Below, piece by piece: positions 37,401 to 40,400 of a stretch of 64,000 nt of DNA (its first letter is position 1; every line of letters starts with the position of its first letter). The stretch lies in NCBI GenBank assembly GCA_045863295.1, contig BTWA01000003.1:192001-256000 (forward strand), read 5' to 3'. Made by a program: the position numbers. This DNA is from Candidatus Hydrogenedentota bacterium. Lineage in GTDB: Bacteria; Hydrogenedentota; Hydrogenedentia; Hydrogenedentales; SLHB01.

Positions 37401-40400
37401 TGAAGCTCGGCGTGCACGGCCACACCGACGAAGTGGCCTCGAACGAGTTCAACTTGAAGCTCTCGCAGCGCCGCGCGGAAGCCGTGCAGAAGTACTTGCT
37501 TGAGCATGGCGCGCCCGGCGACCGCCTGGTGTTGCGCTTCCACGGCGAAGAGCAGCCCGCGGGCCAAAGCCTGGCCAAGAACCGCCGCGTGGATCTCGCA
37601 TTCGAGTAACCGCGGTCATTCCGTAAACACACGGTGCGGGGCGGCTCCTGTTGGAGCCGCCCCGTTTTTTTTGTGATCGCGATGCGCGCGCTAATCCGGC
37701 AGCGGTCTCCGCGGGCACAAAAAAGCGTGCGCACCGCCGCATGGCCGGTGCGCACGCAATGTCGCGTCAGCGATTTGCCTCAGACCGGAATAAACGATCC
37801 AAGCAAACCGGTGAAAAGACCGAGTACCAAGTTGATGATGAAGCTAAACAGACCCTGTAACAACGAAAGCAGGCTGGGCATGTCTTGATCCTCCCGAATG
37901 TCCCTAAGCGCGTTAGGGATGGCCTAGTGCGCACCACGATGGCCGGCACACCCCGTGTGAACCGGCACTTGCAATACCCATGGTTCCGGTAACCGTTACC
38001 GCAGGGCAACCACGGTCCATTGTGACACAGGTTTCCTCATCGCGCAATGCAAACCGGGCCGCACGAAACGGTAACAGAGTTCTAACAACAAGAATTGTGA
38101 TGTAGACAGGGCAAAAAGACGGGAAAAAGATGGTGCGCGGAGGGAGACTCGAACTCCCATCCCCTTTCGAGGACCAGATCCTTAGTCTGGCGCGTCTGCC
38201 AGTTCCGCCATCCGCGCACACCCGCATAGTGTAGCGAATAAACGCGGGATGGTGCAAGAAATTGCGCGATATTGGGCACTCCGCGCCGATGCGCATGCAT
38301 CCTGGCTCGTCACACGACCGCACAAAATTCAGCGCGAATCCACACTTTGCCCGGACAACGCCTCAATGCGATCCGCCAGACCCGGGGCCGCATTCGGATC
38401 GAGTTCGGCGGCCTGCTTGTAGAACTCCAGAGCCTTGTGCGAATCTTTGCGCAGTTCGCTCAGGATGCCAAGGTTTACGAGGGCTCGCGCGTCTCGGGGG
38501 TCTTCTTCCAATGCGCGCTCAAAATACTTCTCCGCAAGGCCATACTCCGCCGCATCGCGAAACGCCACCCCCATGAGGTTCCTCATGTCCGGCCCGGGAT
38601 CGGTAATTTGATCGAACGCTTCATCCGCACGATCGAATTGGCGCATCGCCACATACGCGCCGCCCAACAGGAACCGCGCATCGGCGTTCTTGGGATCCAG
38701 ATCCACGGCCTTTTTTGCCATAGCTGTTGCTTCGTCCATGCGGCCCAGATTTCCCAGACAGGTGGCTGCTTTGATGTAGTACACCGGCTTGGGATGTATT
38801 TCCGACGCGGCCTGCAACGCGTCCACCGCCTCCGCAAAGCGTCCATGTGCGATTAAGTGTTCACCCAAAAAGAAAAGCGCGTGATCGTTTCCGGGCCGGG
38901 ACTGGATGGCGCGTTTCCATAGGGTCTCCGCGTTTGTCCAATAGCCGATCTCGATCCACGTCGCTGTAATCATTACGACGGCCAGCACCGGCGCGGCCGC
39001 CGCGGCCGCAAGCCTGGCCTTCGGAAATGCGCGCACCACATCACGCACGCCCCAGGCGAATACCATGAAAAGGCCTATTGAGGGCACGTACATCCATCGA
39101 TCCGCCATGGCCTGGCCGCCAACCTGACCCAGTATCCCGATCACGGGCAGCAGCGCCACAAGGTACCAACCCCAGCCGTTGGCCACGTACGGACGGCGGC
39201 GAAAAGTCCAGACAGCGGCCGCCGTTACCAACAGGATTAACCCCACGTCGATCACGGTGCGCGTCACGGGAATGCCTAGTGGATAGGGATAGTGAGCGGC
39301 GAGATTACTCGGCCACACAAGGTTCCACACATACATGACATAGGCGTCGGCGGCGGCCTGCAGGCGCTGAAGGGCATTCGTCCGTTCGCCAAACGTCACG
39401 TCGCCCGAATACGCGTGCACGGCGTACGTGATCACGGACCACACCAGACTGACGGCCCATAGCGGTGTCTTTTCCACCACGACGCGTCGCCATGAACCAC
39501 GATCCCACACGTTCAAACGGTTCAGCGGCCACACGTCTATAATCACAAGAAGCATGGGCAGCGTCACGACGGTAGGCTTCGCAAGCAGTCCCATGACAAA
39601 CCAGACCATTACCCCAATCATGTCGCGCCGGTTGGGACGCGCTGCGTAGCGCGTGTAGAACACGATCGCGATCAAAATGAATAGTGTGCTGAGCACGTCC
39701 TTGCGCGAGGCCACGAACGCGACCGCCTGAACCTGCACCGGATGTATGGCGAAGAGAACGGCCACCGCCGCGCTGCACATGCGCTCCCCGGTGAGGCGGA
39801 ACAGAACAAGAAACACAAGCGCGGCGTTCACCGCATGAATCAGGACACTGGTCGCGTGATGACCGATCGGCGCCAATCCAAACAGGGACACATCGGCCAT
39901 ATGCGACAGCAACGTCAACGGCTGCCAATTGTGAAAGACGATTTGCGTGAATGCGCCCGCAAACCCCGCCCACGTTAGCCCTCCCTGCACCAGGGCGTTG
40001 CCGGTCACATACTCGGTATCGTCGTAGGGTTCGATGAATCCGTTGAACAGGGCGCGGGAAAAAACGACCGCAACCACGAGCCCTATTGCGGCGGCAATTG
40101 CTGCTGGCTGGGTCAGGGGTGATGCCGGATTGGGTTTTTGATGCTGCTGGGCACACATACAACTCGCCTCTTGGATTCGGGGTTTCCTGTGCTCGGGCCA
40201 CAGGTGCCGGAACTGGCGCGAGCCGGTACAGTACCGCACATAGTGCCATAGCCGGGAAATCTGCTGGAAACCAGTCGCCGCTACCGCCTATTGTCAATAG
40301 ATTTCCAATCTCAACTGTATACCCTGTATCACTTTTTGACACGAAGTCAACACCCCCGTGTTGCAATGGCAACCAAGGTGACACCCTTTTGCCGGGCCCC

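Follow-up and report, generated by a model that had tools for sequence, protein, structure and literature searches.

Here, we report that the genome of a Candidatus Hydrogenedentota bacterium (G000; an assembly of 88 contigs, 96% complete) encodes a genuine tRNA-Leu(AAG), i.e., a leucine tRNA with an adenosine at the wobble position 34, which takes the place of tRNA-Leu(GAG). It is likely that this tRNA is functional with its A34 most probably converted into inosine by the single TadA of the cell, and that the switch from G34 to A34 is ancestral to one order of the Hydrogenedentota rather than to the phylum and has reverted within that order on at least two occasions. The canonical substrate of TadA in nearly all bacteria is tRNA-Arg(ACG), which becomes tRNA-Arg(ICG). 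Oenococcus was the first case in which wobble inosine was measured in a second bacterial tRNA, and in streptococci and lactobacilli it has recently been linked to a genome-wide recoding of leucine codons.

The gene is the sole tRNA gene that ARAGORN finds in the window, i.e., the whole 64-kb stretch of DNA analysed here (Table 1). Its position, strand and covariance score had been given in a preliminary description of this DNA, and all were confirmed by ARAGORN, by the tRNA model RF00005 and by reading of the sequence. The RF00005 score is 52.8 bits compared with a gathering score of 29, with the full model covered, and both the long variable arm and the discriminator A73 are those of a class II leucine tRNA. 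Please note that RF00005 run at the gathering threshold on a 4.5-kb slice containing the tRNA returned no match, which is due to the search filters. In an alignment of 19 orthologues, 16 of the 26 pairs show compensatory changes on both sides and the anticodon loop does not vary; this is a real gene, and its structure is under selection. A terminator-like hairpin parts the upstream 636-aa ORF from the tRNA gene, and a consensus scan between the two gave no sigma-70-type promoter match. When the 3-kb tRNA locus was compared with 31 other loci by tblastx, the tRNA alone was matched, the closest genus included, so synteny cannot tell whether the GAG genes of relatives occupy the AAG locus. One sequencing run (X1, probably DNA) gave a single contig of 151 nt that covers the anticodon and is identical to the window, and an RNA run (X2) gave just fragments of foreign tRNAs and one flank.

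Table 1. Features at the tRNA-Leu(AAG) locus, in coordinates of the 64-kb window.
Feature	Position	Strand	Description	Basis
tRNA-Leu(AAG) gene	38131..38217	-	87 nt, class II (long variable arm), A73, CCA encoded	ARAGORN and Rfam
Anticodon loop	38179..38185	-	C32-U33-A34-A35-G36-G37-A38	read from the sequence
Wobble adenosine A34	38183	-	presumed deamination site	ARAGORN (anticodon from gene base 35); sequence ruler
Terminator-like hairpin	38331..38346	-	end of the upstream 636-aa ORF	consensus scan and ORF list
ORF upstream of tRNA-Leu(AAG)	38329-40239	-	636 aa	ORF list

Over the whole genome ARAGORN gives 43 tRNAs, with the leucine anticodons AAG, CAA, CAG, TAA and TAG and no GAG, as had been described. 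A34 is limited to tRNA-Arg(ACG) and to tRNA-Leu(AAG), and the latter is the sole CUY-type leucine tRNA among the 43. The replacement of GAG by AAG holds equally in G034 and G069, the two genomes that consist of a single contig: their long-arm tRNAs, 10 per genome, were all retrieved and typed again, and each genome has exactly five leucine tRNAs (TAA, TAG, CAA, AAG and CAG) with tRNA-Leu(GAG) absent, in line with the earlier account. In G000, tRNA-Leu(AAG) would be the only dedicated reader of CUU and CUC. The earlier statement that no other tRNA is able to read these codons is reasonable but goes beyond proof, because tRNA-Leu(UAG), if its U34 is unmodified, could in principle decode the entire CUN box of four codons. 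Both codons are in substantial use: in 3176 long ORFs, CTC has a share of 0.203 of the leucine codons (30,595 of 150,819), CTT 0.156 and CTA 0.044, which agrees with the shares reported before.

The anticodon loop CUAAGGA differs from that of the cell's own tRNA-Arg(ACG), CUACGGA, at position 35 and nowhere else, and the same arginine loop is found in the 7 relatives in which tRNA-Arg(ACG) was located. Every one of 115 AAG tRNAs of the phylum has A38, and position 32 is C in 111 of them and U in four; in all five GAG tRNAs position 38 is G and position 32 is U or A (UUGAGGG in four, AUGAGGG in one). Positions 32 and 38 hence change together with 34 across the AAG and GAG tRNAs, as selection for TadA recognition predicts. 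The change is seen even inside one genus, where G077 (GAG) and G078 (AAG) have ribosomal proteins 90% identical and their two tRNAs, from the anticodon arm to the T loop, differ by one base outside the loop. By the TadA of E. coli, an AAG anticodon placed in an Arg2-type loop is partly edited, and editing is blocked by changes at 32, 37 or 38, according to the available passages of PMC11066159.

The TadA of G000 is encoded at C7:25592-26077 (161 aa, 173.8 bits on NF008113 with an equivalog cut-off of 150) and bears the HAE and PCxxC motifs. It is the one full-length match in the genome, which bears out the single TadA described before; the sole other deaminase-fold match is a 368-aa frame at 28.4 bits. 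With a single TadA in the genome, I34 is what one would naturally expect. We infer the deamination of A34, and TadA as its enzyme, from the arginine-like loop, the differences of the GAG tRNAs at 32 and 38 and the heavy use of CUC, and the enzyme would be the same one that edits tRNA-Arg(ACG). Its nearest solved relatives are the TadA chains 7cph, 2b3j, 2nx8 and 1z3a, and each of the 13 genomes searched within the order has a TadA 64-75% identical to it. Sixteen TadA sequences were aligned and tested for columns tracking the tRNA state. Eight columns set the two basal GAG lineages apart from the order, but at each of them G084 and G116 show the AAG-type residue in spite of their GAG tRNA, and in the printed alignments the S. 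aureus TadA shows the order's residues at columns 106 and 123 and the S. pyogenes TadA has the basal-type L at column 123. A TadA residue signature for the AAG state was therefore rejected, with G084 and G116 discordant and the solved TadAs unsorted at the two columns checked; no residue tied to the tRNA state was found among the 16 sequences.

Among 135 genomes of the phylum, 115 carry the AAG tRNA, five the GAG tRNA and 15 neither. AAG occurs in 115 of the 133 genomes of the order. The GAG carriers are G001 and G002, which are the deepest lineages and stand outside the order, and G077, G084 and G116 inside it; AAG is absent in all five. The trait had been called fixed across the phylum, which does not hold with GAG both inside and outside the order. 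Only the best blastn matches had been typed before, which are AAG-like by construction; these 30 loci, from G000 and 29 relatives, are indeed all AAG. Of the 115 AAG genomes, 36 were typed by ARAGORN and the remaining ones are pattern matches showing the loop, the variable arm and the T arm. The pattern of CTAAGG plus T loop also matches tRNA-Ser(GCU) and the D arm of a tRNA-Cys, and a D-arm pattern, at 88 of 135 genomes, is too narrow for a tally. The two tRNAs were not seen together in any of the 135 genomes by GAG pattern searches, the absence of GAG beside AAG in family f1 being based on a narrower GAG pattern. CTGAGG plus T loop gave 62 matches compared with 38 control matches, none tRNA-like, and these were rejected as GAG tRNAs after 30 of the loci had been retrieved and no tRNA was present at the matched site; at two of the 30, an unrelated tRNA lies about 1 kb off. 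G+C content as a driver of the switch was rejected for the pair G077 and G078, both of which are at 63.9% over 80 kb. The CTA share is 0.011 in G077 vs 0.037 in G078, and the other GAG genomes show no such pattern.

The tRNA-Leu(AAG) of the Lactobacillales (Oenococcus oeni, Streptococcus pyogenes, S. mutans, S. pneumoniae) has the same class II body and the same genomic A34. In common with our case, AAG replaces tRNA-Leu(GAG) and never stands beside it, one homodimer-type TadA is present, and tRNA-Leu(UAG) is kept alongside for CUA. The Lactobacillales are AT-rich, whereas the present case is in another phylum at 57-66% G+C. The leucine and arginine loops of S. pyogenes differ at 35 and 37 (PMC11472039, available passages), those of G000 at 35 only. 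Editing has been demonstrated in the Lactobacillales, and for G000 we infer it. In vitro, tRNA-Leu(AAG) is edited by the TadAs of both S. pyogenes and S. pneumoniae, and in cells streptococcal tRNA-Leu(AAG) is fully I34, as described in the available parts of PMC11472039 and PMC13249217. The former also describes that the E. coli TadA fails to edit S. pyogenes tRNA-Leu(AAG) in vitro, so acceptance by the TadA of G000 cannot be assumed. Compared with tRNA-Arg(ACG), with which it has in common the loop C32-U33-A34-N35-G36-G37-A38, the presumed enzyme and the cell, tRNA-Leu(AAG) has A35 for C35, a class II body and another codon box. Once deaminated, the tRNA-Leu(IAG) would decode CUU and CUC, as well as CUA redundantly, as has been demonstrated in Oenococcus and Streptococcus; with tRNA-Leu(UAG) in the genome, it is not required for the A-ending codon. 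Eukaryotic tRNA-Leu(IAG) has the same anticodon and the same outcome (CUU, CUC and CUA), with G34 likewise replaced by A34. The eukaryotic enzyme, ADAT2/ADAT3, is a heterodimer that needs the whole tRNA and ignores the loop sequence (PMC9643335, available passages); G000, in contrast, has one TadA-type gene and a tRNA loop that looks tuned to sequence-specific recognition.

If A34 were unmodified or edited in part, the tRNA would read mainly CUU and CUC poorly, and CUC would be left to a weak A:C pairing or to four-way reading by tRNA-Leu(UAG) with an unmodified U34. We consider this unlikely. The search for CmoA/CmoB gave none above cut-off, so tRNA-Leu(UAG) has no U34 of the cmo5U type, which suits such a reading but counts equally towards a demand for a reader of CUC. 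So does the ribosomal-protein operon of G000, in which CTT (0.145) and CTC (0.100 of the leucine codons) are both below their genome-wide shares and CUC:CUU is 25:36 vs a genome-wide CUC fraction of 0.565 (binomial p = 0.02), although the arginine pair read by I34 is at CGC:CGT 159:47. With this drop, CUC seems no favoured codon in G000. Mollicutes provide further cases of unmodified A34 tRNAs. In the available passages of PMC11066159, two of the four A34 tRNAs encoded by O. oeni, with A34 in the gene as in G000, stay unmodified beside a working TadA, so A34 is no guarantee of editing, and an orthogonal AAG tRNA in E. coli reads CUU at 4.3% and CUC at 1.5%. What distinguishes G000 from the O. 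oeni pair is a TadA together with a loop that mimics its substrate, i.e., the TadA substrate loop except at 35, with 32 and 38 shifting whenever G34 returns. The genome-wide number of CUC codons is hard to reconcile with a poor reader, and so is their share of 27% (67/247) in the ribosomal-protein operon of the AAG-bearing G078, next to 30% (72/240) in its GAG-bearing congener G077. Moreover, every bacterial tRNA-Leu(AAG) examined in the available parts of PMC13249217 and PMC11472039 is I34.

It is very improbable that a tRNA-Leu(GAG) lies in the unassembled part of G000, in which case AAG would be an addition and not a replacement. The incomplete assembly, from which tRNAs for Arg(CCG), Ile(GAT) and Ala(TGC) are also absent according to ARAGORN, and the existence of GAG tRNAs in five genomes of the phylum would allow for it; the two closed genomes with their five leucine tRNAs and the failure of any of the 135 genomes to show both, tRNA-like GAG being confined to those five carriers, argue against it. 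There is also a small chance that the GAG tRNAs inside the order are binning contaminants and that AAG is fixed there. The bins G084 and G116 are fragmented, with 790 and 910 contigs and 5% contamination, their GAG contigs are at 62-65% G+C, and their GAG anticodon arm, agc-UUGAGGG-gct, is the same as in the basal G001 and G002. Other stretches of these two genomes, however, have the same G+C of 63-66%, and the acceptor stems of their GAG tRNAs (gcgcgcg and gcgcgag) are close to the gcgcg-type stems of AAG tRNAs, which dominate family f1 and are also seen in three genomes of f7, and are unlike the basal gccggga. An 878-aa protein on the GAG contig of G116 is most similar to proteins of the family (40-52% identity, with G084 at the top score) and has no second copy in G116. 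The GAG tRNA of G077 keeps the body typical of the order and matches the AAG tRNA of its congener outside the loop. Finally, AAG is absent in all three genomes, which is unlikely to be a coincidence, as 15 others of the 133 lack AAG.

The preliminary description had set the Hydrogenedentota apart from the few lineages in which the tRNA was known, which overstates its rarity. According to the available passages of PMC13249217 (2026), which uses GtRNAdb, almost all bacterial tRNA-Leu(AAG) genes are in the class Bacilli. In one scan of public species genomes with a pattern that fixes the loop CUAAGGA, about 3400 matches were estimated and 120 listed; 119 of the 120 matches listed are tRNA-Leu(AAG), and 86 among the matches listed have titles outside Bacilli. 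Verrucomicrobiota, Clostridia, Cloacimonadota, Synergistota, Planctomycetota, Alphaproteobacteria, Myxococcota and others appear among these titles, which suggests that tRNA-Leu(AAG) occurs in many phyla. Streptococcus and Lactobacillus among the matches listed have the loop CUAAGGA too, as the search pattern required. The matches listed also include cultured Verrucomicrobiota, Rubritalea and Luteolibacter for example. A literature search linking inosine and A34 tRNAs with Verrucomicrobia found none, and one on Hydrogenedentes and tRNA found nothing on tRNA anticodons in titles or abstract openings. The tRNA-Leu(AAG) of the Hydrogenedentota is a new lineage of an already known tRNA type, and the same tRNA as in Bacilli spans an order in a phylum that is uncultured and moderately GC-rich.

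What is new and most useful here is that A34 and G34 versions alternate within one order, and even one genus, together with positions 32 and 38, which gives testable predictions on what TadA reads. We tentatively raise the possibility that tRNA-Leu(AAG) is a recurrent and switchable bacterial solution, in which 34 switches with 32 and 38 and an arginine-like loop decides on editing by an ordinary TadA. If this were true, the solution would be found in at least about 2% of species genomes, provided that one match is one species, and in a dozen or more phylum-level groups, with no specialised enzyme needed. In that case, the basal GAG lineages and the two or more reversions would make the order a natural experiment for the substrate rules of TadA. 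The alternation is also a caution against taking A34 as arginine-only in tRNA annotation or in codon-use models of uncultured bacteria.

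The sole tRNA that ARAGORN detects within the 64-kb window is the tRNA-Leu(AAG) of the preliminary description, which scores 52.8 bits over the full length of the Rfam tRNA model (gathering score 29). Please note that the 52.8-bit match came from E-value mode on a shorter slice, while a gathering-threshold run over 4.5 kb (window 36000-40500) was blank; this blank reflects speed filters, not the sequence, and a blank in this mode does not show that a gene is missing. The 110 bases preceding the tRNA contain no match to a sigma-70 promoter consensus. In 19 orthologues sampled throughout the order, pairing persists at 16 of 26 predicted base pairs despite changes on both sides, and the seven loop bases are invariant; the AAG tRNA is under structural selection.

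Features of the tRNA-Leu(AAG) locus (window positions)
Feature	Position	Strand	Description	Basis
tRNA-Leu(AAG)	38131-38217	minus	whole gene	ARAGORN; Rfam
Acceptor stem		minus	7 bp	direct sequence reading
D stem		minus	3 bp, typical for leucine tRNAs	direct sequence reading
Anticodon stem		minus	CCAGA/UCUGG	direct sequence reading
Anticodon loop	38185-38179	minus	C32-U33-A34-A35-G36-G37-A38	direct sequence reading
A34	38183	minus	wobble base	direct sequence reading
Other parts		minus	long variable arm, standard T arm, discriminator A73, encoded CCA	direct sequence reading
Terminator-like hairpin	38331-38346		closes 636-aa ORF upstream of tRNA	

The genome of the window (G000; 6.34 Mb, 88 contigs, 56.6% G+C) has 43 tRNAs by ARAGORN over the whole assembly, with the leucine anticodons AAG, CAA, CAG, TAA and TAG. 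There is no GAG among them, so the claimed replacement of tRNA-Leu(GAG) by AAG holds in this genome, and A34 is limited to Arg(ACG) and Leu(AAG). The assembly does not yield a full tRNA set: Arg(CCG), Ile(GAU) and also Ala(UGC) are lacking. The latter two typically go missing when an rRNA operon is unassembled; CGG, for which no tRNA-Arg(CCG) was found, accounts for 25% of the arginine codons of long ORFs and for 30% of those in the ribosomal-protein operon. tRNA-Gly(CCC) occurs twice (C85:1299-1370 and C6:33851-33926), and the C85 copy, which is 72 nt long and lies on a very small contig, may represent either a duplicate or foreign DNA. Our recount over 3176 non-overlapping long ORFs agrees with the leucine codon shares described before (CTG 0.302, TTG 0.261, CTC 0.203, CTT 0.156, CTA 0.044, TTA 0.035). 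The gene that had been named as TadA (C7:25592-26077) is correctly assigned: its 161-aa translation contains the HAE and PCxxC motifs, it scores 173.8 bits on the NCBIfam TadA equivalog (cut-off 150), and its nearest solved relatives are bacterial TadAs. The only other deaminase-fold match in this genome is a 368-aa frame with 28.4 bits. A role of TadA in editing tRNA-Leu(AAG) is likely. Neither CmoA nor CmoB is above cut-off in this genome; therefore, E. coli-type cmo5U34, through which tRNA-Leu(UAG) reads more codons, is not expected.

The phylum set comprises 135 genomes, of which 133 belong to the same order as the window and two are deep lineages outside it (G001, G002). ARAGORN called tRNA-Leu(AAG) at all 30 top-ranking blastn loci, one in G000 and the rest in 29 other genomes. 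A pattern search combined the anticodon loop and T loop (CTAAGG...GTTCRANTC), in which the matched strings set Leu(AAG) (CTAAGGAT or CTAAGGAC) apart from tRNA-Ser(GCU); one family of the order, f1, was listed by a family-level rerun of the CTAAGG and T-loop search. Three fetched exceptions (G072, G129, G081) are also AAG with a T loop ending in CC, and the AAG tRNA of G066 has the loop UUAAGGA, a variant common to G064, G065 and G070. GAG loops were searched across the set as CUGAGG, UUGAGG and RUGAGGG: UUGAGGG is the loop in the tRNA-like matches of G001, G002, G084 and G116 (4/4), G077 has a tRNA-Leu(GAG) with the loop AUGAGGG, and no further GAG tRNA-like match occurs among the matches listed for the 135 genomes. 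The AAG state is found in 115/135 genomes (f1, 49/54; the order's remaining twelve families, 66/79), GAG only in those five, neither in 15, and both together in none. The trait had been described as fixed across the phylum, which does not stand given GAG in both deep lineages, where it is the ordinary G34 tRNA, and in G077, G084 and G116 within the order; the tally therefore makes it characteristic of one order, and a single G-to-A change at the base of that order is the simplest history. The reported lack of GAG in the single-contig relatives G034 and G069 is confirmed, as all ten long-arm tRNAs fetched from each include Leu UAA, UAG, CAA, AAG and CAG. Completeness is below 90% in 11 of the 15 genomes with neither tRNA, and tRNA-Ser(GCU) is likewise absent from about 10/79 non-f1 genomes among the matches listed; therefore, most of these cases look like assembly gaps.

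G076 (98% complete, 42 tRNA matches) has four leucine tRNAs (CAA, UAG, UAA, CAG) and neither AAG nor GAG among eight long-arm matches fetched plus Ser(GCU); the cause is a gap in the assembly or, alternatively, another way of reading CUY in this lineage. Two copies of tRNA-Leu(AAG) are present in three genomes: G018 (C60:41439-41523 and 48847-48931, 7.4 kb apart on one contig), G023 (C137, C158) and G082 (C43, C69). A 44-base element of G041 (TTGAGGYGCG...GACCGCGAAG...GTTCGACCC; 14 copies on 13 contigs, e.g., C13:26347-26390 and C95:6993-7036) looks like a dispersed repeat family; it surfaced as background in the search with GAG patterns and, among the matches listed there, recurs in G041 alone.

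G077 (GAG) and G078 (AAG) belong to one genus, with ribosomal proteins 89.7% identical over 1940 aligned columns, and the stretch seen in both of their tRNAs, from anticodon arm to T loop, has a single base difference outside the loop. The loop is CUAAGGA in G078 and AUGAGGG in G077, which is an A-to-G reversal in place with positions 32 and 38 altered too. CTA is 1.1% of leucine codons in G077 and 3.7% in G078 at equal G+C (63.9%; 80 kb each), the direction expected if IAG helps CUA reading; the other GAG genomes are without such an effect. G084 and G116 share 80% ribosomal-protein identity (72-73% for either with G000), and their GAG tRNAs combine gcgcg-type acceptor stems, the dominant type among f1 AAG tRNAs, with an anticodon arm identical to that of the two deep lineages. 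Both are fragmented bins, in which a GAG contig could come from contamination, but we consider this improbable: the 878-aa protein beside the G116 tRNA has its best matches in f1 (40-52% identity, G084 top by score) and no second copy in G116, and G+C elsewhere in both genomes, 63-66%, agrees with that of the GAG contigs (62-65%). These contigs look native. Flanking genes around the tRNA are not conserved even between close genera, so synteny is of no help here.

In G000, the Leu(AAG) loop CUAAGGA differs only at 35 from that of its own Arg(ACG), CUACGGA, a TadA substrate. The same Arg loop is present in G025, G034, G051, G069, G078, G084 and G116, and C32-U33-A34-C35-G36 starts the Arg loop in most tRNA-like matches listed phylum-wide. 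According to PMC11066159, E. coli TadA partly edits AAG when this anticodon sits in an Arg2-type loop but no longer does so after changes at 32, 37 or 38, and in the ADAT2/3 structure (PMC9643335) base A38 is contacted by a loop that is conserved in both TadA and ADAT3. Position 38 is A in all 115 A34 tRNAs, and position 32 is C in 111 of them and U in 4 (the f1 pattern fixed A38; patterns with position 38 free gave no other Leu-like variant), and all five G34 tRNAs have G38 with U32 or A32. This is, indirectly, as expected if an A34 tRNA must resemble tRNA-Arg(ACG) for editing, a constraint that would lapse once G34 returns. Both of these positions have a general role in tuning decoding as well, and the five GAG cases are perhaps three or four events. 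TadA identity to G000 is 64-75% across 13 searched genomes of the order and 56-57% in G001 and G002. Eight TadA columns (G000 positions 29, 49, 69, 73, 93, 106, 123, 142) part the two basal lineages from the order; a signature for Leu acceptance in them was rejected, as GAG-bearing G084 and G116 have the order's residues at 8/8. S. aureus TadA has the order's residues at 106 and 123, and S. pyogenes TadA the basal-type L at 123. G043 has, besides a TadA 75% identical to that of G000, a second TadA-like frame (C827:747-1184; 46%), which may be foreign (bin contamination 6%).

With an orthogonal AAG tRNA in E. coli, CUU is read at 4.3% and CUC at 1.5% (PMC11066159, Table 1), and poor CUC reading is expected of unedited A34. 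In the ribosomal-protein operon of AAG-bearing G078, CUC:CUU is 67:23 (CUC in 67/247 leucine codons, 27%); in GAG-bearing G077, it is 72:12 (72/240, 30%), not significantly different (Fisher p = 0.09). Such frequent CUC in strongly expressed genes of G078 argues for an efficient CUC reader, i.e., I34. In G000, the operon has 25:36 (CUC 25/249, 10%; CGC:CGT 159:47), below the genome-wide CUC share of 0.565 of CUY codons (binomial p = 0.02), vs 58:43 in GAG-bearing G001 of similar G+C (Fisher p = 0.05). A section heading of PMC13249217 states that CUU and CUC are decoded equally with IAG and that GAG favours CUC, which 25:36 fits; incomplete A34 editing would also fit, and the ratio speaks mildly against I34 reading at full efficiency in G000.

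I34-tRNA-Leu is termed rare in bacteria (PMC8266599), and a passage of PMC13249217 places nearly all bacterial tRNA-Leu(AAG) genes, from GtRNAdb, in class Bacilli. We scanned 185,579 species genomes with a pattern from the window's tRNA (D arm plus CUAAGGAY), giving at least 120 loci; the estimated number of matches is about 3400. Among the 120 matches listed, 119 are tRNA-Leu(AAG) by ARAGORN; by record title, the 120 fall into Streptococcus (24), other Bacilli (8), Clostridia or other Bacillota (22), Verrucomicrobiota including cultured Rubritalea and Luteolibacter (20), Cloacimonadota (9 or 10), Synergistota (7), Alphaproteobacteria (7), Planctomycetota (6), Myxococcota or "Deltaproteobacteria" (6), Hydrogenedentota (3) and other groups. 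The tRNAs of the three records titled Hydrogenedentota are identical or nearly so to phylum-set tRNAs, G129's among them, in support of the phylum name given before. The rarity of the lineage had thus been overstated, with many groups outside Bacilli among the matches listed. The AAG order of Hydrogenedentota is a further lineage with an already known tRNA type, in which inosine itself is what we infer from sequence; what is added here is the alternation of A34 and G34 within the order and within a genus, coupled to loop positions 32 and 38.
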